Translations under genes and position numbers: made by a program
The notes under the pieces: model-generated
What the model was told of the DNA's origin: nothing
Seen by the model: only the letters and a program-made list of their open reading frames with translations
Databases searched by the model: none
Assembly: GCA_024679065.1 (NCBI GenBank)
Contig: JAGIQG010000011.1
Location: 73,098,001 to 73,162,000 of the forward strand
Direction: 5' to 3'
Length of the DNA: 64,000 nt
Origin: Sphyrna mokarran
Taxonomy: Eukaryota
Shown: piece after piece, positions 1,300 to 64,000 of the stretch
Layout: the number at the start of each line of letters is the position of its first letter
Numbering within the stretch: position 1 is the first letter of the stretch

Positions 1300-2278
1300 G
1301 CGGATCAAGGTATTCAGTGCAGTTGACGTCTACATGGACCTTAGCAAAGCATTTAACAAGGCTCCACATGGTAGGTTGTTGCATAAGGTTAAATCTCACA
1401 GGATCCAGAGTAAGGCAACCAAATAGATACAAAATTGGCTTGATGACAGAAGACAGAAGATGGCTGTAGAGGGTTGTTTTTCAAAATAGGGGCCTGTGAC
1501 CAGTGGTGTGCCTCAGGGATCAGTGCTGGATCCACTGTTATCTGTCATTTATATTAATGATTAAGCCAGCATTTAGGAGGCATTGTTAATAAGTTTGCAG
1601 ATGACATTAAGATCGGTGGCATTGTGGACAGTGAAGCAGGTTACCTAGGATTGCAATGGGATCTTGATCAATTGACCCTGTGGGCTGACGAATGGCAGAT
1701 GGAGTTTAATTTAGATAAATGTGAGGCGATGCATTTTGGCAGATTGAACCAGGGCAGTACTTAGTTAATGGTAGAGTGTTAGGGAAGAACAAAGGGATCT
1801 AGGAGTACAGTTCATAACTCCTTGAAAGTGGAGTCATAGATGGACAGAGTGGCGAAGAAGGCATTTGGCATGCTTGGTTTCATTGAGCAGAACATTGAAT
1901 GCAGGATTGGGAAGTCTTGGTGAAGTTGTACAAGACATTGGTAAGGCCACACTTAGAATACTGTGTGCAGTTCTGGTCATCCTATTATAGAAAGAATGTT
2001 TAAAAACATGTTTAAAAACTAGAAGGAGTGCAGAAAAGATTTACTAGGATGTTACCAGGACTTAATGATTTGAGCTATAAGGAAAGGCTAGATAGATTCC
2101 TTGGAACGTGGGACACTTTAGAGTGATCTTATAGCGGTCTATAAAATAATGAGGGGCATTGATCATATGGGCCAAATGTGGGCAATTGAGAGTAGCTTAG
2201 TGCTTAAAAAGGGATAACATGGACAAATTGGACCAAAGGGCCTGTTTCCATGCTTAAACCTCTATGACTTCTATGAAT
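1300..2278 (+). mobile_element. CR1 LINE, degenerate RT domain to 3' end
   Basis: [53 protein letters not shown] with stops/frameshifts; ctatgacttctatg tail. Confidence 0.93.
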
Positions 2279-3325: not shown

Positions 3326-3465
3326 AAGCATACTTCTCTTTGACCCCCATCTTAAGAGTGTGCGCTACTTCTATAGGTACCTTCCCCCAAAACTACCAAC
3401 CCAACTACTGTGATAGGTACCTTAGCATGATTGCTTCCCTTCCCTGAACTCTTCCTTTCTTTTCC

Positions 3466-4274: not shown

Positions 4275-4975
4275 ACGAACATACGAATCAGGAGCAGATG
4301 TAGGCTAATCAGCCCCTCAAGCCTGCTCTGCCTTTCAGTAAGATCAAGGCTGATCTGGTTGGAACCTTAACCTCATATTCCTGCTGACCCCAATAACCTT
4401 TCACCCTCTTGTTAGTCAAGAATCAATCTAACCCCAATTTCGGGGTGGGTGTGGCAGTAAAATTTCAGCCAAAGCCTCTGCCTCCATTGCCTTTGGAAGA
4501 AGAGAATTGCAAAGTCTCATGATCCTCTAAGGGAAAAGAAAATTCCTCATCCCTTAGTCTTAAATATGGTGATCCCTTATTTTAGAACAGTGACCCTGAG
4601 TTGTAGATTCTCCATCAAAAGGAAACATCCTCTCCACTTTTAACTTGTCAATACCCTTCAGGGTCTTAAATGTTTCAATCAAGTCACATCTTAATTTTCT
4701 AAACACAAATTGATACAAACCTAACCTTTCCAACCTTTCCTCATAAGACAACCCATCCATTGCTGGTATTAGTCCAATAAACTTTCTCTGAATGCTTCTA
4801 ATCAGTTACATCCTTAAGAAGACCAATATTGTACGCAATACTCCTGATGTGGTCTCACAAAATGCTCTATAAAACTGAAGCATAACCTCCCTATCTTTGC
4901 TATTAATTCCCCTTGCAGTAAATAATAACCTTCTATTAAGTCTCTAATTACTTGCTGTACTTATAGACTAATCTT
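4275..4975 (-). mobile_element. CR1 LINE 3' part
   Basis: ORF 4560-4760: GLSYEERLERLGLY..KLRCDLIETFKTLKGID. Confidence 0.9.
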
Positions 4976-4977
4976 TA

Positions 4978-5200
4978 CTGATTCATTAGATGTGGGCATT
5001 TATTGCCCATACATAGCTGCCCTTGAGAAGATGGTGGTGAATTGCCTTCTTGAATGCTGCTGTCCGTGTCGTTGTAGGTACATCCATAGGGCCTGTTAGG
5101 AAGGGAGTTCCAGAATTTTGACTCAACAACAATGAAGAAACGGCAATACATTTCCAAGTCAGATTGGCAAGTGGCTTGGAGAGGAAACGGTGGTGGTGTC
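4978..5200 (-). mobile_element. CR1-group (Zenon-like) LINE 3' end
   Basis: VVESKFWNSLPN, then tail ttctcaagggcagctatgtatgggcaataaatg; same family as 19925, 26695, 46875. Confidence 0.8.
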
Positions 5201-9281: not shown

Positions 9282-9828
9282 TTTAGCACTGATGTATGCC
9301 TCACATTTGCACCTCACAACTTGCGTACACTGTTAGCTTTTTGGTCATGGCACAACAACTAAACAACAACAACACTCACTGTCACACACAGATACAGCCA
9401 CCATGTAATTTAGGGCACAGTATAGATGCGGGATCTGCATGTTAATACTATGGGCACGAGTGGCCTGTAGGAAGAACAGGGGGAAAGGAAAGTAAAATAT
9501 CGACTCACCAGAGGATGAAGAGACATATAAGTTCACTCTACAGAGGAACTATTGATCGGAAGCCTACAGAAAAAGGCTGAATGCGTACACACACACACTG
9601 AAATACATGGTGCTTTGGAAAACCTTTCAGAAAATCAGCATTTGAGGAGCTTGCAGCAGTCTGGCTCAAAATTGGATTTTGTGTCAAGCTCTGAGGCCCA
9701 TGCTCTCCCGCATTGGAGGTCAAGTTCATTTGCACACTTGTGGACCTAGCCATAAACGGTGTCCAGTTTCCACTGTAGCAAAAGCAGCTACCACCTACAA
9801 TGTGAGTTCTGCAGTAGGAACTTTTAAA

Positions 9829-10385
9829 TGGTGATCTAATGGTAATTTGGGTGGTCTAATAATTCTGTGTCCGGGCTCTGTGGGACACAGGTTCAAATCC
9901 CATACGATTGATAGATATGAGGCCAGATTGATAGAGATACAGGTGCTTCTGAAAGTTAATTCAATTAATTAATAAATCTGGTATTTAAGAAAAATCCCAT
10001 AATTGGTGACTGTGAAACTACTGTTCATGTTCACAAAAAGCCCCTTAGTGCACTAATGCTCTCTACGCAAGGAAATCTGCCATTCAGACCTGATCTGTCC
10101 TAGATGTGACTCCAGATCCACACCAGACTGATTGACTTTTATATGATCTAACCAATTATTCAGTTGTACCAAATCAGTACAGAATAGTCAAAAAGGAATG
10201 AAACTGAATGAAACAACAACAGCTCACACAGCCTGGTTGACCCTGCAAGATCTTTCTTGCTAAACCTGTGTGTTTGTGCTAAATTGGGAGAGCTGTCGCA
10301 CTGACCAGTCAAGCAATAGACTGGCAATAATCATACTCACCAGACAAAATCCTACGGACAATATCCCAGATACCACCAGCATTGA
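9829..10385 (+). mobile_element. Zenon-like CR1-group LINE 5' end: tRNA-like head, 5' UTR and start of APE endonuclease
   Basis: B box ggttcaaatcc 9890-9900; family-B body; then KLGELSH*PVKQ..IIILT..TDNIPDTT-like endonuclease N-terminus. Confidence 0.75.
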
Positions 10386-10420
10386 ATATATTCAAGAAAG
10401 GGTTAACATGGTTTTATTTG

Positions 10421-10957
10421 TGTAATGACCTCAACAAGGCCTCTTGATGTATGAACTCTCTGATTGAGATAATGATTGTCTACCCAATCAGGGGGTCTCA
10501 ACTTATATACATACATATATATTGAGGAATGTAAGGACTAAGGACAAGCCAGATTCTAACTTTGTACTCTTAAGAGTGGAGTTGAGTTTGTAAAGAAAGG
10601 AATGTGGTGAAGGGACACCATACTCTGAGGAGTGGCACAATGGCACAGTAGTTCACATTGCTGCTTCATAGTGTTAGGACCATAAGTTTGACTCCCAGCT
10701 TGGGTTACTGTCTGTGTGGACTTTGCACATTCTCCCCATGTTTGCCTGGGTTTTCCCTGACTGTTCTGGTTTCCTCTCACAGTCCAAAGAGTACGGGTTA
10801 GGTGGATTGGCCATGCTAAATTGCTTCTTCATGTCAGGGGGCTAGTTTGGGTAAATGCATGAAATTATGGGGTTAGGCCTAGATAGGATTGTAGTTGGTA
10901 AGACTCAATGGGCAGAATGGCCTCTTCTGCGCTGTATGATTTTTATGAGTTATTTCA
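10421..10957 (+). mobile_element. Probable solo LTR (Gypsy-type), interrupted by a SINE
   Basis: Begins tgtaat, ends atttca (TG..CA); internal ccaat, TATA-like run and degenerate poly(A) signal; no clear TSD. Confidence 0.55.
10630..10948 (+). mobile_element. V-SINE/HE1-type SINE, tail A
   Basis: Head, V-domain and CR1-type tail all present. Confidence 0.9.
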
Positions 10958-11114
10958 TTCCACAAATGAGAGGCAGGTTATGGGGGAAGAGGTGGGTGAA
11001 GGCAGAAAAGTCGACTTAAGCCCACAATCAGATCAGTCATTAACTTATTGATTGGTGGGGCAAATGCAATATGATGAATAGCCAATTCCTGCTCCTATTT
11101 CTTCTGAGCTTATG

Positions 11115-11295
11115 ATCACCACTCTTGGATATGCCTTGCTTCATTGACAGAACTGACACACCAGAGGTCGTGGACACAGTGGTATACGTTCAGGAGGGAA
11201 TTATCTGGGGAGTACCCAACATGGATTCCAGACCCCATGAAGTTTAATGGCATCAAGTCACACTCAGGCATAGAAACATTCTGCTGATGATCTCC
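11115..11295 (+). mobile_element. Continuation of the Zenon-like LINE endonuclease
   Basis: Degenerate GY..H*QN..TRG..TVVYVQEGIIWGVPNMDSRPHEV*WHQV; picks up where the 10385 fragment stops. Confidence 0.7.
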
Positions 11296-11814
11296 AGTAT
11301 GCCAACCAAATTGCAATTTGAAGGAGCTATGGAAAATAATAAATGCATAACAACAGCCAGATGACATTAGTCAAGAGTTAACCTTGAGGTAGTTAATGGC
11401 TGATGGTCCCTTTAAATATTGCTGAATTAACGTCACTCCCTGCTGCACAATGTGTGTTCAACTGAGCAAGGCTAAGGGATGGTGTTAGTTGTAATGTTAA
11501 ATTTTGAAATGGCACCACTGCCATAATGTGTCTGCTCTGTGAATTTTCTGCAGATGTTCACTGCGGGTGTGTGAAGAACTTTACTAATATAGGATCCAGT
11601 GTGATTCTTCACAAATATGAACGTATACCCTGGGTGCCATATTGGAGTTATAAAGGCAACTGTAACAACGTGCCCAATTTTTGCCTTTTAATCTTCTTGG
11701 TAACTGCACCATTGAAGTCTTACATGAAACTGAGTGAAAATGTGTCATGCTTATCAAATCCACAATGATAAGAAGGAGAAGTCCAAGTATAGTAGAAATG
11801 GCTAACATCAAAAT

Positions 11815-26694: not shown

Positions 26695-27210
26695 TCTATT
26701 CATTTAGGAAGTGTTGGCATCACTAGCAAGGCCAACATTTATTATCTATCCCTAATTTCCCTTCAGAAGGTGATGGTAAGCTGTCTTCTTGAACTGCTGA
26801 AGTCTTTAAAGTGTAGTACATCCATAGTACTATTAGGAAGGGAGTTCTAGGATTTTGACCCAGCGACATTGAGAGAACAGCAATATATTTCTAAGTCAAG
26901 ATGATGAATGGCTTAGAGGGGTCTCTCTGGTGGTTGTTCCATGAATCCGCTGCCTTTGTCTTCTAGACTGTTGTGGAAGGCTGTCTAATGAGTCTTGATG
27001 AGTGGCTGCAGCTCACCTTGTAGGTGATGCACAATACTGTCAATGTGCATCAGTGGTGGAGGGAATTAATATTTTTGGATGGAGCTGCTTTGACCTGGAT
27101 AATGTCAAGCTTCTTGGCTGCTGTTGGAGATTCAATCTTCCAGAGACTACACTTGACTTTGCCTTGTAAATTGTGGACAGGTTTTGGGAGTCTGAATGTA
27201 AATTATTCGC
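26695..27210 (-). mobile_element. Zenon-like LINE 3' part
   Basis: SQNLSTIYKAKS in minus ORF; same tail as 4978 and 19925. Confidence 0.8.
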
Positions 27211-33036: not shown

Positions 33037-34955
33037 AAACACGGAAGCTAGAAGCAGGAGTAGGCCATTCTCCACCATTCACTTTGATCACGGCTGATCA
33101 TCATATTCAATACCCAGATCCAGCGCTCTTCCCATATCCCTTGATCCCTTTAGCCCCAAGAGCTCTAGCTAATTTGTTCTTAAAATCAGACAACATTTTG
33201 ACCTCAACTACTTCCTATGACAGTGAATTCCACATATTCCCCACCCTCTGTGTGAAGAACTTTCTCCTCACCTCAGTTCTGAAAAGTTTACTCTCAAACT
33301 ATAACTCCTAGTTCTGAGACCTTCATCATTGGGAACATTCTTTCTGAATCTAGCCTGGCTAACCCAATTAGAATTTTATAAGTTTCTATGCGAACCCTGC
33401 TCACTCATCTAAACTCCAGTGAATATAATCCTAATCAACTTAGTCTCTCCTCATGTGACAGATCTGCCATCCCAGGAATCAGTCTAGAAAAACTTCACTC
33501 TACTCTCTCTATAGCAAGTATATCCTTCCTCAGATAAGGACACCAAAACTACACACAAGATTCCAAGTGTGGCCTCATCAACACCCTACACAATTGCAGC
33601 AAAACATCTCTATTGCTATACTCAAACTCTCTCATTATGAAGGCAAACATATCATTTATCTTCATTATTGCCAGTTACAACTGTACGCTTACTTTCAGCA
33701 ACGGGTGATGAGGACAGCAAGATCTCGCTAAGTATCCACTTCTCTCAATTTACGCTTGTTCAATTACAAAGAACCAAGAACAAAGAAAGTACAGCACAGG
33801 AACAAGTCCTTTGGCCCTCCAAGCATGTGCTGATCATGATGTTCTAACAAAGAAAAATCTTCTGCCCTTACTCAGTCCTTATCCCTCTATTTCCCTCTTT
33901 ATTCATGTACCCATCCAAATGCTTCTTTAATATTGCTAATGTGCCTGCTTCCACCATATCTTTATGCAGTGTGTTCCAGGCACCCACCTTTCACTGCATG
34001 ATAAAACTTACCTGCACATATCCCTTAAACTTTGCTCCTCTCACCTTGAACCTGTGCCCAGTTGCAATTGACACTTGCACTCTTAGAAAAAGTCTCTCAC
34101 TATCCGTCCTGTCTACGTCTCTCATAATTTTGTATTATGTATCTGGTCTTTCCTCAGCCTCTGCCCTTCCAGTGAAAACAATCCTTGCTTATTCAACCTC
34201 TCGTCAAAGCCTACATTTTCAAACCAGGCAACGTCCTGGTGAATCTTTTTTGCACTGTCTCCAAAACTTCCATATCCTTTTAATAATGTAATGCTCCAAA
34301 TGTAGCCTAAACCAATGTTTTATATAGCTGCAACATGATTTTCCAACTCCTGCATTCAATGTTCCTGCTTATGATGGCAAATACACCATATGCTTTCTTA
34401 ATCATCTTGGCCACCTGTGTTGCCACTTTTAGGGAACTGTGGATCTGCACATCCAGATCTCTCTGTTTCTAAGATTTCTGCCATTTAAAGTATAATTCAT
34501 CCCTAAATTTGATCCTCCAAAAGGTATCACCTTACATTTGCCATTTCTGTGCCCAAGTCCCCAACCTATCTATAATCTATAATAATCTGTTTTCCTATTA
34601 ATGCTACCAAAATGGATAATCTTCACTTTTCCACATTATACTACATCTGCCATGCAGACGCCCACATATTCAGCCTATCCAAATCACGCTGAAGCATCTC
34701 TGTATTGTCCTCACAGCTCACCTTCCCACCCAACTTTCTAGCATCTGCAAATTTGGAAGTATTTCATTCAGTTCCCTCTTCCAAATCATTAATGTATAAT
34801 GTGAACAATCGGGGTCCTAGCACAGATCCCTGTAGAAACTTACTAGTCACCCACTGCCAATCAGAAAAAGACCCATTTACACCAACTCTTTGCCTCCCGT
34901 CTGTTAGCCAGCTTCCTATTCCTCTCAGGACATTACCTACAATCCCATATAATTG
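33037..34955 (-). mobile_element. CR1 LINE (RT to 3' end) with a second CR1 nested at ~33767-34580
   Basis: [40 protein letters not shown] in ORF 34764-34985; a second CR1 tail (ttctttgttcttgg) begins at 33767; an older + strand CR1 flanks both sides. Confidence 0.88.
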
Positions 34956-45330: not shown

Positions 45331-46007
45331 GATGTTATATAATTTAGGTAATCTGAGGCAAATAGGTTGAGTGTTATACACTTTGATTGATATTTACAGT
45401 GTATCACTGTTTGTGCTCCTTCATTGCAGGAGTGACATAATTCTTAGGTGCTTCCCTTGATGAGACACAGCAGAACTGAGTCACCACCTTCCCTTCCTTT
45501 GATTGTAGGTGTTAGCTCCTGGAGAGGCAAATCCATAAGTCACCGAAGCTCGGCTGCAGTAGTATATACTTGTGCCTGAGGTTTTTAACCACCCACTTAC
45601 TGATCCGTCAAGTTGTCCAACACAATTTTAACAATTTGATGTTCTAATAAGTGTCATTCTAAATGAGGAAGAGCAGAACTTTATTGAAGCAAGAAGCGCT
45701 TTTATAAGCACAAATCTTCCTGGTGCAATGAACCAAGAGATTTTATGGCTTTAATTAGTTTATGACTTTTCCATGGTTTCAACTCAGCGCAGAACTTCCC
45801 TCACATTTAGATCAACAGCTGAAGTCCATTTTTCAGTGGTTATCTTTCAAGTTAACATTTCATGTTTGATCTTTAAAATGGACTCCAAACAATTAATCAG
45901 GCATTGCTGCAATAATACATGCACGTTCAGAGCATGTTGTGAATTCATGCAGGATTTATGAAAATTCACTGAATTGTTAGCTCTCATCACTGAATTGCTT
46001 GTCCAGT

Positions 46008-46084
46008 AATATAACAACTGTGCTATCATACAGTCATATGATCACTGGGCTAACATACAGTATTATGACCACTGTGCTATCATA
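46008..46084. repeat. ~26-bp tandem repeat x3
   Basis: ataacaactgtgctatcatacagtc / atatgatcactgggctaacatacagt / attatgaccactgtgctatcata. Confidence 0.8.
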
Positions 46085-46874
46085 TTCAGCATCTGGTTGT
46101 CAACAGCCACAACGCAGCATTGTATTTTTCAAACTCCTCAGGCTATAAGTGTCACCATTAAAAGAATGTAAAAGGAAACTAACATTGTAAATCTTTCAGT
46201 GATGTCTAACTTCAGTATAGTTTTAGCTTCTGTGAAATTCAGGTAAGTGATTGAAGCAGATGGCTTGGAGCCCAATCTGCTGTCAATTGCCCATTTCAGG
46301 GAACACTGCATAGGCGCAGAGCCGTAATGACCATTACACTAGTACTAGGGACAAATACTTCGAACAATAATCCACTAAGCATCAGTAACGTTCATCTAAA
46401 TTTCAATAAACATACCATGTGATACTTAAAATATATTGTTATAATTCCAGGACACTATCATTAACATGTTACTGACAAAATTCCAAAAATAATTTAATGG
46501 TTCCGTTGCAGACACAAATGGCATGAGCGTATATCCAATATCACAGCCCATAGCGACTATTGAAACTTTGCCTCTTGCCACTCCATTCCCCCCACAAAAA
46601 ATCAAATATTGAATTCTCAAGTAGCAAATCTTGCAAGCCTAACAGGAAATATTTTTCCATGCAGGGAGGATGTTACTTTTCTGTTTACCGAACACTTCAG
46701 TGCAAACTGTGTTTTGGATTTGACAATTTCACAGTTTGAAGTACTGTGCACACATGATTAGATCAAAATACTTCTCCCCCCCAAAAATTACTAGCAGATA
46801 ACTAATTAAAGATTAGGGGTTGTGCAGTCTTTTCTCTAACAGCAAAAGAGGGAAGTGGAAGCCATTTTTCAAAA

Positions 46875-47530
46875 CTTCACTCATGGGATGTGAGCTTAGT
46901 TGGCTGGATCAGTATTTATTGCCCACCATTAATAGCTTTTGAGAAGGTGGTGGTAAATTGCCTCCTTTAACTGCTGCCATTTGTATGTGTAGGTGCATTG
47001 ACTGTGCTGTTAGTTTAAAGTTTATTTATTAGTGTCATAAGTAGACTTATATTAACACTGAATGAAGTTACAGTGAAAATCCACTTTCTGCCTGTTTGGA
47101 TACACTAAGGGAGAATTTAACATGACCAATACATCTAACCAGCATGTCTTCCAGACTTTGGGAGGAAACCAGAGTGCCACGAGTAAATCCACGCAAACAT
47201 GGGGAGAACATACAAACTCCAGACAGTGACCTAAGCATGGAATTTAACCTGTGTCCCTGGCACTGTGAGGTAGCAGTGCTAACCACTTCCAGACTTCCAC
47301 CCAGCAACAGTGAAGGATAGTGATATATTTCCAGATTAGGATGGTGAGTGACTTGGAAAGGAACTTGCAAATGGTGGTGTTCCCTAGTCCTTTTATGTGG
47401 CAGAGGGCAAAGAAGGTGATATCTAGGGAGTCTTGGTGAACTCCTACAGTGCATCTTTTTGATGGCACACTCTGTTGCTACAGTGCACCGGTGATGGATA
47501 CAGTGAATATTTGTAGATGGGATGCCAATT
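46875..47530 (-). mobile_element. Zenon-like LINE 3' part split by a tail-B V-SINE (47013-47288)
   Basis: IGIPSTNIHCIHHRCTVATECAIKKMHC in ORF 47068-47571; family tail at 46875-46960. Confidence 0.85.
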
Positions 47531-47587
47531 GATGTGATTGACATGTTCCCAATTATGAACAATTTTGACAAAATTGCTTATGGAAAA

Positions 47588-58919: not shown

Positions 58920-60928
58920 CAGATGGGAGTTATGTACTGGCCCCCTCGCTGTAGTCAGGATGTGGGGCAGAAAATAAATCAGGAGATAGAAAAGGCATAT
59001 AAAAAGGCAATATTACAACAATCATGAGGGACTTCAATATGCAGGGGGATTGGGAATATCAGGGATTCCCAAGAAAAGGAATTTGTGGAATACTAAAAAG
59101 ATGGTTATTTTAGAGCATCTTGTGGCAGAGCCTACCAGGGAACACGCAATTCTAGATTTGGTGATGTGTGATCAGGTAGACTTGATTAGGGGACTTAAGA
59201 TAAAGGAACCCTGAGGGAGCGACGACAACAATATGATGGAATTTACCCTGCAGTTTGTGAGGGAGAAGCTAGAATCAGACATAATGGTATTACAGTTAAA
59301 TAAAGGTAACTACAAAGACATGAGGGAGGAGCTGGCCAGAGTCGTTTGGAGAGGGAACCTAGCAGGGAAGATAGTAGAAAAGCAATGGTAGGAGTTTTTG
59401 GGAGTTATTCGGGAAGCACAACAGAAATTCATTCCAGGGAGGAAGCATCATGCTAAGGGGAGGACAAGGCATCCATGGCTGACAAGGGAATTCAGGGACA
59501 GCATAAAAGCAAAAGAAAAAGCATAAAAAGTGGCGAGGATTAGTGGGAAGTCAGAGGATTGGGAAGTCTTTAAAAGCGAGCAGAAGGCAACTAAAAAAGT
59601 AATAAGAGAAAACAAGGTGACCTATGAGTGTAAGCTAGCTAGTAATATAAAAGAAGATAGGAAGAGCTTTTTTTCGATATATAAAAGGTAAGAGAAGGGT
59701 AAAAATGGACATTGGGCCACTGGAAAATGAGGTGAAAGAAGTAATAATAGGAAGCAAAGAAATGGCAAAGGAATTGAATAGCTACTTTGCATCAGTCTTC
59801 ATGGTGGAAGACACCAGCGGGATGCCAGAGCTCCAGGAGAGTCAGGGGGAACAGATGAGTGTAATGGCCATCACTGAGGAGAAGATTCTGGGGAAACTGA
59901 AAGATCTGAAGGTAGATAAGTCACCTGAACCAGATGGGCTACAACCTAGAGTTCAAAAAGAGCTGAGGAAATTGTGAAGACATTGGTGGTGATCTTTCAG
60001 GAATCGCCAGAGGCAAGGAGGGTACCGGAGGACTGGAAAATAGCTAATGTAACACTGCTGTTTAAGAAGAGAGGGAGGTAACAGGTGGGAAATTATAAGC
60101 CAATTAGCCTGTCTTCGGTCATTGGCAAGATTTTAAAGTCCATTATTAAAGATGAGATTGCAGAGTACTTGAATGTGCATGATAAAGTCAGCACAGCTTT
60201 GTCAAAGGGAGATTATGTCTAACAAATCTGTTAGAGTTCTTTGAGGAAGTAATAAGGAAGTTAGATAAAGGAGATCCAGGCTATATGGTTTATTTAGATT
60301 TCCAGTACGCCTTTGACAAGATGCCGCATAGAGACTGTTAAATAAGTTAAGAGCCCATGGTGTGAAGGGTAAGATCCTGGCATGGATAGAGAATTGGCTG
60401 ATTGGCAGCAGCAAAGAGTGGGAATAAAGGTGTTTTTTTTTTCAGGACTGCAGCCAGTGACTAGTAATGTGCCTCAGGGGTCAGTGCTGGAACCTCAACT
60501 TTTCATAATATTTGGAGGAAGGAACTGAAGGCACTGTTGCTAATTTTGTAGATGATACAAAGATATGTAGAGGGACAGGTAGTATTGAGGAAGGAGAGGG
60601 GCTGCAGAAGAATTTGGACAGGTTAGGGGAGTGGGCAAAGAAGTGGCAGATGAGTACAATGTGAAAAAGTGTGAGATTATGCACTTTGGACTGAGGAATG
60701 GAGGCATAGACTACTTTCTAAATGGGAAAATGTTTAGAAAATCAGAAACGCAAAGGGACTTACAAGTCCTTGTTCAAGGTTCTCTTAAGCTTAACATGCA
60801 GGTTCAGTCGGCAGTTAGGACGGCACATGTAGTGTTAGCATTTATGTTAAAAGGGCTAGAATATAAGATCACGGATATACATCTGAGGCTGTATAAGGCT
60901 CTGGCCAGACTCCATTTGGAGTATTGTG
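58920..60928 (+). mobile_element. CR1 LINE ORF2 (endonuclease C-half and RT), degenerate, 3'-truncated
   Basis: IMRDFN, PTREHAILDLV, PWLT, ELNSYFASVF, DKSPEPDG, NYKPISL, VPQGSVL, FVDDTK, LYKALARLHLEYC; multiple stops. Confidence 0.95.
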
Positions 60929-63028: not shown

Positions 63029-63104
63029 ATGCAGTTATTTGAATGACAGCATTCATTGTGTTATTGATCAAGTTACTTTGACCTTTGAATGAATGATATC
63101 AGGC

Positions 63105-63420
63105 ATGGCTGAAATCCCACTATGACAAAAGCTAAATTCAATTAATGAAGCAAAAAAGCACAACAACAATATAAAGCTAGTATCAATAATATGACAGTTC
63201 AGCTACCAGGTTTGTGCAGAAATGCAACCAGTTCACCAATGTCCTCTAGGAGAAGAAACCAGTTCTTATCTAATCTGGCATATATGTGGCCCACAGCCAT
63301 GTGGCTGACTGCCACTATGAGGTGGTGCAACAAGTTACTCATATATATTTAACCCGCTGGCTCCTCATCATTTTCCCAAGGGCATTTAGGGATAGACAAT
63401 CAATCTTGGCTTGTCATCAA
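63105..63420 (+). mobile_element. Old family-B SINE variant
   Basis: gaaatcccac head end, ccagttcaccaatgtcctctagg body, ccaagggcatttagggat tail. Confidence 0.65.
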
Positions 63421-63434
63421 TATAAAGAACAAAC

Positions 63435-64000
63435 AAACTAAAATCAGACAAATTCACAGGACCTGATGGCCAACTTCCCAAAGCTCTAAAAGAGATAGCT
63501 GCAGAGATAGTGGATACACTAGCTAATCTTCCAAATTTGCTTAAATTTGGGAATGGTCCCAGCAGATTGGAAGTTGGCTAATGTTACCATGCTTTTCAAG
63601 AAGGATGATGGAGAGAAAACAGTGAACTACAGGCCAATTAAGTCTAACATTGGTTGTTGGGAAAATAGTGGGAACTATTGTTAAGGAAGTCTTAATAAGG
63701 CACTTTGGAAAGCATTGGATGATTAGAACAAGTCAACATAGTTTTATTGAAGGGAAATCCTGTGTGATAAATTTATTAGAGGATGTAATTAATGGGGTCA
63801 ATAAAGGGGAACCAGCAGATGTAATATACCTAGATTTCCACAAGACATTTAATAAGGTGCCAAAGAAAAGGTTAATAGGCAAGATAAGAGCCCATGGAAT
63901 TAGCTATAATATATTAGCATGGACAAGAAGCAGAGGATGGACATAAATGGAGTATTTTCAAATTGATAGAGACTGAGGAGTTGAGTGCCACAAGGATCAG
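63435..64000 (+). mobile_element. CR1 LINE RT fragment (runs off the window)
   Basis: DWKLANV..FKK..NYRP; SQHSFIEGKSCVINLL..DVIYLDFHKTFNKVP. Confidence 0.92.

Follow-up and report, generated by a model that had tools for sequence, protein, structure and literature searches.

A putative LINE with a SINE-type, tRNA-like 5' end directly before its endonuclease in Sphyrna mokarran

Can a long interspersed element (LINE) begin with the transfer RNA (tRNA)-like head of a short interspersed element (SINE), and if so, how would its RNA be completed and translated? Customarily the two classes are divided into coding LINEs made by RNA polymerase II (Pol II) and non-coding SINEs made by RNA polymerase III (Pol III), a split that could not be upheld given a successful SINE-headed LINE family. 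The question is raised by a locus at 9828..11304 of a 64,000-nt stretch of Sphyrna mokarran DNA (assembly GCA_024679065.1, contig JAGIQG010000011.1, positions 73,098,001 to 73,162,000, forward strand); we call the whole stretch the window and count positions from its first letter. From its sequence we read this locus as a decayed, 3'-truncated LINE copy in which a SINE-type 5' end stands directly before the endonuclease frame. On the same basis we regard it as a real feature, a LINE with a SINE-type 5' end that so far is without description in the literature searched. The window DNA is repeat-rich, its LINE pieces match whale-shark gene models, and it holds two SINE families, here termed A and B, which we presume to be of V-SINE/HE1 type and of SacSINE1/Deu type, respectively. 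The parts of the locus are as follows:

9828..9904, plus strand: tRNA-like head of family-B SINE type (box scan with shuffles; hidden Markov model (HMM) of family-B heads, E 0.009)
9905..10165, plus strand: family-B SINE body (alignments; match to P0005 residues 1-14)
10166..10256, plus strand: leader, from the SINE tail-switch point to endonuclease motif I (common to P0004, P0005, P0006 and P0010)
10257..10382, plus strand: first piece of the endonuclease N-terminus, frameshifted and with stops (tblastn with P0001-P0010)
10383..10630, no strand assigned: 5' part of a younger insert (no other match in the window)
10631..10940, plus strand: nested family-A SINE copy
10966..11114, plus strand: 3' tail of another retroposon family, presumably CR1/HER1-type (alignment score 74; the highest of 300 shuffles reached 32)
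11115..11304, plus strand: second piece of the endonuclease, with similarity tailing off by about 11304-11343

Head, body, leader and endonuclease are thus colinear in that order, and the body, which contains a 13-nt local duplication (9906-9918 and 9926-9938), aligns with the best family-B SINE copy of the window at a score of 108, as compared to a maximum of 37 in 300 shuffles. This reference copy is:

13895..14268, minus strand: best family-B SINE copy; body end at 13962, tail start at 13961

Partial family-B copies lie near 3465, 38430, 48960 and 63090. Three SINE copies enter their common tail where the locus enters the leader at 10166 (switch point 10165), and motif I begins 91 nt further on, at about 10257, in agreement with an initial annotation of this DNA that had placed the endonuclease within some 100 nt of that point. 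The same annotation had pointed to an A and a B box, to a family-B body that continues past the tail switch into APE-type endonuclease sequence, and to a resumption of the latter at 11115, all of which the box scan, HMM, alignments and tblastn confirm. The distance from the head start to motif I is 430 nt, fully accounted for by head, body and leader, so that no room is left for a first open reading frame (ORF1). The lack of the upstream ORF1 that characterizes two-ORF vertebrate CR1/L2 elements had likewise been proposed, and it is borne out at the locus and in four whale-shark models with an equally short leader.

Does the joint between SINE body and endonuclease recur beyond this one copy? 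A search with the protein P0001 gave 14 relatives (13 of the 19 near-length candidates, P0001 included, and 1 of 150 longer ones), 13 of which are whale-shark gene models. In four models (P0004, P0005, P0006 and P0010), related sequence extends upstream of the endonuclease; 4/4 have the locus leader, with 0, 0, 0 and 3 of 200 shuffles matching as well. For the first six residues of both P0004 and P0010, the single best DNA-compatible site among approximately 128,000 window positions is 13984 on the minus strand, with 1 and 2 mismatches, respectively, in 18 nt; this site comprises the last SINE-body bases before the tail, and both models run from there through the leader into the endonuclease with no intron needed. 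The best site for P0010 residues 38-56 is 10211, which lies in the endonuclease frame, with 13 mismatches compared to 18 for the next site. P0005 starts with a stretch of SINE mid-body: 12/14 of residues 1-14 agree, with 3 mismatches in 42 nt, and the second-best site is the locus itself. Going by these alignments, body end, leader and endonuclease start are colinear in two species. SINE and LINE fragments are dense in the window, which might favor a tail-less SINE copy lying by chance beside an unrelated LINE fragment, the very outcome that the initial annotation had named as fatal to its proposal; this is contradicted by P0004 and P0010, two whale-shark models that cross the same joint in register, and we consider it most improbable. 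As the whale-shark copies have the same joint, the LINE family likely carries a SINE-type start. Weak body matches of P0003 and P0012 (1/200 shuffles each, among 40 tests) were treated as chance.

Wider searches yielded no usable further DNA copy, either in scans of viral and genome contigs with P0001, of metagenome, viral and genome contigs with query A3, of genome and viral contigs with P0017 (a single relative, with no locus, among the viral contigs), or of viral contigs with P0016; no full-length ORF was obtained from the longer-protein searches (1/150 candidates; 2/24 candidates), and the SINE DNA had no match among plasmids. A 20-nt body motif had 0 viral, 1 genome and 2 metagenome matches, all in bacterial-looking DNA devoid of further similarity, and these were taken as chance. 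A word search of sequencing runs listed 11 of them, one with 0.95 of the words and ten, not counted as evidence, with 0.05-0.06; no RNA run was among those listed.

The coding part of the locus is interrupted. P0004 residues 71-87 correspond to 10327-10377 and residues 88-107 to 11115-11174 (tblastn), the frame breaking near 10380 and picking up at the next residue at 11115; consecutive residues on both sides point to a single frame, into which a younger block of about 735 nt was inserted. This block consists of a 5' part (10383-10630, about 250 nt, with no similarity elsewhere in the window), the family-A SINE and the tail of the other retroposon, whose family is also found near 53.2 kb and 3.2 kb. 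No reverse transcriptase (RT) or tail follows the second endonuclease piece at the locus, the copy being 3'-truncated. We assign the frame, by homology, to an N-terminal APE-type (Exo_endo_phos) endonuclease, an assignment for which the relatives rather than the window pieces give the domain evidence: P0001 matches Pfam Exo_endo_phos at E 0.0014, below the curated cut-off, and its ESM Atlas neighbors at 0.95 are in clusters in which 22-73% of members carry Exo_endo_phos. The window endonuclease pieces alone had no meaningful Pfam match; the piece at 11143-11298 matched 2 proteins among 1.84 billion representatives, one of them P0001. A PDB profile search with query A3 found no match, and the AlphaFold model had a predicted local distance difference test (pLDDT) score of 42.5 and gave Foldseek rows that are meaningless.

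What, then, is the sequence at the very 5' end? An A-box-like 11-mer, 1 mismatch away from the consensus, lies at 9832-9842, and 9890-9900 is a perfect B box; pairs of such quality occur 4 times in the window (the locus and three family-A SINE heads) as compared to 1 pair in 30 whole-window dinucleotide shuffles. An HMM trained on three family-B SINE heads, with the locus left out, gave 9828-9904 as its top non-training match, in register, at E 0.009 (11.4 bits). The HMM of family-A heads, which has 21 matches at E < 1e-8 in the window (11 of them training copies), had none at the locus head. No tRNA was called at the locus by ARAGORN or Rfam, and the head folds no better than shuffles (z -1.58), with no cloverleaf; these negatives indicate that 9828..9904 is a decayed tRNA-like head rather than a tRNA gene. 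An Rfam match to mir-297 (E 5.6) was taken as chance. The locus has the 5' tRNA-like head with A and B boxes of a SINE2 element; it is not the short, non-coding element with a LINE-type tail that a SINE2 should be, since the tail is absent and the sequence runs into approximately 105 endonuclease codons. The structure is well supported at the joint of SINE body and endonuclease and moderately at the head. We also note short imperfect repeats at 45987-46110 (minus strand), similar to the family-B head in its 5' half and with no body behind them.

The other end of the element must be sought elsewhere in the window, where four LINE 3' fragments encode one C-terminal region, with relatives P0016 and P0017:

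19915..20510, plus strand: 5'-truncated LINE 3' fragment that holds the ORF C-terminus (stop codon at 20455-20457) and terminates in the family-B SINE tail
26700..27186, minus strand: LINE 3' fragment with the family-B SINE tail
4975..5200, minus strand: LINE 3' fragment with the family-B SINE tail
46900..47571, minus strand: LINE 3' fragment interrupted by a family-A SINE

The fragments terminate in the family-B tail, which begins inside the last ORF codons, so that the family-B SINE shares its 3' tail with a LINE 3' end in the manner of Deu-SINEs. Its 5' part is common to the endonuclease-bearing copies and its 3' part to the LINE ORF-end fragments, from which we infer that fragments and endonuclease very probably belong to one family and that the SINE is that LINE minus its coding middle. 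One spliced model, P0011, combines an endonuclease piece with an RVT_1 piece (E 0.0007), the RT domain that the truncated locus copy lacks, and the family is likely, judging from such pieces, a single-ORF endonuclease-RT element. An ESM Atlas search with P0017 gave unnamed eukaryotic clusters only. The fragment at 19915-20510 was considered as the 3' end of the locus copy itself; this was not supported, there being no significant duplication (44/500 shuffles) and no middle pieces between the two. The SINE copy at 63090-63420 (plus strand) stands out by roughly 28 additional bases at the switch to the tail and by a match to the LINE 3' end that extends ≥7 bases beyond that of other copies; to go by the alignment, this might mark a second deletion breakpoint. 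A family-A SINE splits both the fragment at 46900-47571 and, within the insert, the locus, which indicates that family A was active later than the endonuclease LINE.

How might such an element work? In the explanation we favor, an old tRNA-headed SINE 5' module would have been captured by a LINE as a promoter via template switch, and the A and B boxes of the head would drive Pol III transcription of the full-length LINE RNA. Avoidance of T runs on the sense strand would keep the Pol III transcript open to its end, the uncapped RNA would be translated into one endonuclease-RT ORF by a cap-independent or non-AUG start, and the LINE protein would recognize the tail in cis; the SINE would be the same LINE 5' and 3' ends without the coding middle. 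For this explanation as a whole, with the head family-wide, we estimate a probability of roughly 0.47. Its components differ: full-length copies of the family probably start with the tRNA-like head; given such a family-wide head, Pol III would be a good, if slightly less secure, candidate for producing the full-length RNA; and cap-independent or non-AUG translation of an uncapped RNA is a tentative proposal. The initial annotation had put forward a single-ORF CR1-group LINE with a tRNA-derived promoter; the part that stands is the run-on from SINE body to endonuclease with no ORF1, which recurs in a second shark, and the tRNA head has been seen on the locus copy only.

The sense strand might be expected to be poor in TTTT if Pol III made the full-length RNA as proposed. 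The presumed family pieces have 2 TTTT in 2273 nt, with 5.5 expected from dinucleotide shuffles (P 0.041) or 7.0 from mononucleotide shuffles (P 0.024), and five family-B SINE pieces have 0 in 1003 nt; the window mean is 6.3 per kb. Another LINE type of the window, of similar T content and presumably CR1-type, has 10 TTTT in 2068 nt over four pieces (binomial P 0.013):

59918-60758 (plus), 63451-63897 (plus), 1349-1797 (plus) and 34607-34937 (minus): control LINE, coding fragments of a second family, used for T runs

The depletion of runs of four or more T that the initial annotation had proposed to look for is thus found in so far as TTTT is scarcer than expected, and falls short in that the deficit is weak, comes from few, old and decayed pieces, and does not extend significantly to T5 runs. 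With regard to translation, P0010 residues 29-38, which continue in frame to the endonuclease, have their counterpart in P0004 residues 23-32, and Met is absent from P0004 residues 7-32 and P0010 residues 29-52. In the reference SINE copy, the corresponding frame is closed by a stop a few codons ahead of the switch, and across the roughly 45 codons from the endonuclease frame back to this SINE-body stop there is no Met. The lack of Met together with the upstream stop suggests, from three decayed copies, a non-AUG or reinitiation start.

Alternatively, the same structure might be transcribed by Pol II, with head and body as a captured 5' untranslated region (UTR), transcription from an internal body promoter or by host read-through, and boxes that matter for the SINE derivative only. 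All of the structural evidence fits this equally well, LINE mRNAs are normally capped Pol II products (PMC5786205), and the TTTT deficit is marginal. It sits less well with a B box that is still perfect in an old copy, with TTTT being scarcer than in another LINE of the window, and with the fact that none of the copies seen has an in-frame Met close to where the endonuclease starts, and we consider it unlikely, at about one chance in four. We regard as equally unlikely a bipartite system with a rare chimera, in which the LINE 5' UTR would comprise no more than the final stretch of the SINE body, the SINE would consist of head, body and a segment made of the LINE 5' UTR plus the LINE 3' end, and the locus would have gained its head by template switch or recombination in the shared segment. 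That P0004 and P0010 span the body end only is in keeping with this; RTE and Vingi provide known cases of tRNA-headed SINEs on a bipartite LINE (PMC5786205), single chimeric Alu/L1 insertions are known (10.1101/2025.02.02.635956), and in the elephant shark about 160 bp of 3' sequence common to two SINE families exceeds the LINE-tail match (PMC5499810). Conversely, head, whole body, leader and endonuclease start are colinear at the locus, whereas Alu/L1 chimeras, as described, usually join a 5'-truncated LINE; P0005 places a mid-body peptide before the leader in a second species; and the TTTT deficit in the coding pieces would be left without explanation.

Several observations weigh against the Pol III explanation that we favor. 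The tRNA head is one that gene models cannot reveal, and its similarity is modest: pairwise, 1/3 family-B SINE heads aligns above shuffles and 2/3 do not, so that we regard the head as real but worn. Among the 14 relatives, 10 are silent on the 5' end, 4 of them having ≤4 upstream residues and 6 unrelated upstream sequence; P0004 and P0010 cover just the last ~23 nt of the body. The relatives are spliced predictions, and P0011 fuses LINE pieces to a REST-corepressor exon, so that the P0005 body peptide could derive from a separate SINE copy; mid-body sequence before the endonuclease is accordingly represented by the locus copy and one uncertain model. Endonuclease and tail are joined in no single sequence. 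The locus alone has 1 TTTT run (P 0.59), at 10137-10140 in the body, which is absent from two aligned SINE copies and which probably, on that comparison, represents a later mutation. Lastly, in the account of Kojima 2018 (PMC5786205) autonomous LINEs are Pol II units and SINEs cannot encode protein.

Does anything known resemble this element? No description of a coding LINE family with a tRNA-SINE head was found in the literature searched; a Repbase or Dfam consensus, which lay outside the search, may already hold the structure. The Deu-SINEs SacSINE1 and LmeSINE1 are like family B, which we presume to be SacSINE1, in having a tRNA head, a conserved body, a tail common with the 3' end of a CR1/L2-group LINE and an occurrence in cartilaginous fish. 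The portions of that literature at hand describe tail homology only, to which the locus adds a SINE 5' part before a LINE endonuclease. The partner LINE of shark Deu-SINEs is given variously as L2-2_CM (PMC5499810), 'CR1-4_DR-like' (table of PMC3747384) and L2 (PMC2746220), and the endonuclease LINE is likely a CR1/L2-group member, a putative placement. Across a range that extends from hagfish to amphioxus and sea urchin, Deu-type bodies are joined to several different heads and tails (PMC7245038; table of PMC3747384), which makes capture of an old SINE 5' module by a LINE appear more likely than birth of the module in the endonuclease LINE. Bov-B/Bov-A/Bov-tA and the RTE- and Vingi-derived SINEs offer another likeness, the short element being the LINE 5' part plus the 3' part (PMC5786205, PMC4494074, PMC7245038), and the parent LINEs of bipartite systems, as stated for RTE, resemble the locus LINE in having no ORF1 (10.1101/2025.02.02.635956). 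In these systems, as described, a tRNA head is on the short derivative only, whereas here it precedes a coding copy (one copy) of a LINE that is likely CR1/L2-group. ORF-less bipartite elements are listed there only for RTE, Ingi, Vingi and R2 (PMC5786205, PMC4494074, PMC7245038), and the Repbase-wide survey reported no source of SINE middles other than the 5' regions of RTE and Vingi (PMC5786205).

Chimeric Alu/L1, tRNA/L1 and U6/L1 insertions similarly place Pol III RNA-derived sequence 5' of a LINE (10.1101/2025.02.02.635956). As described, these are single events, mostly with 5'-truncated L1 and with tRNA pieces that are mostly antisense halves, whereas the locus joint is fixed in two species and the ORF start is kept. 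If the RNA is uncapped, R2 offers a possible model for its translation, being a single-ORF element without long terminal repeats and with an RNA that differs from ordinary capped Pol II products; R2 RNA is uncapped and has a non-AUG start. In contrast to the locus element, with its N-terminal APE-type nuclease and internal A and B boxes, R2 relies on a restriction-like nuclease and lacks its own promoter. Its co-transcription with the rRNA genes is touched on in PMC5786205.

If it is driven by Pol III, the element would represent a natural protein-coding Pol III transcript with testable termination and translation. The structure is also relevant to the question of where conserved SINE bodies come from: here the 5' UTR of a likely CR1/L2-group LINE contains a complete SINE 5' module. 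Repeat maskers probably split such copies into 'SINE + LINE', which would hide the family. Finally, pieces of the endonuclease LINE are spliced into host gene models in P0003 (RIMS1-like) and P0011 (REST corepressor); a RefSeq member, P0015, has no LINE piece, and mis-prediction of such host gene models is therefore likely.
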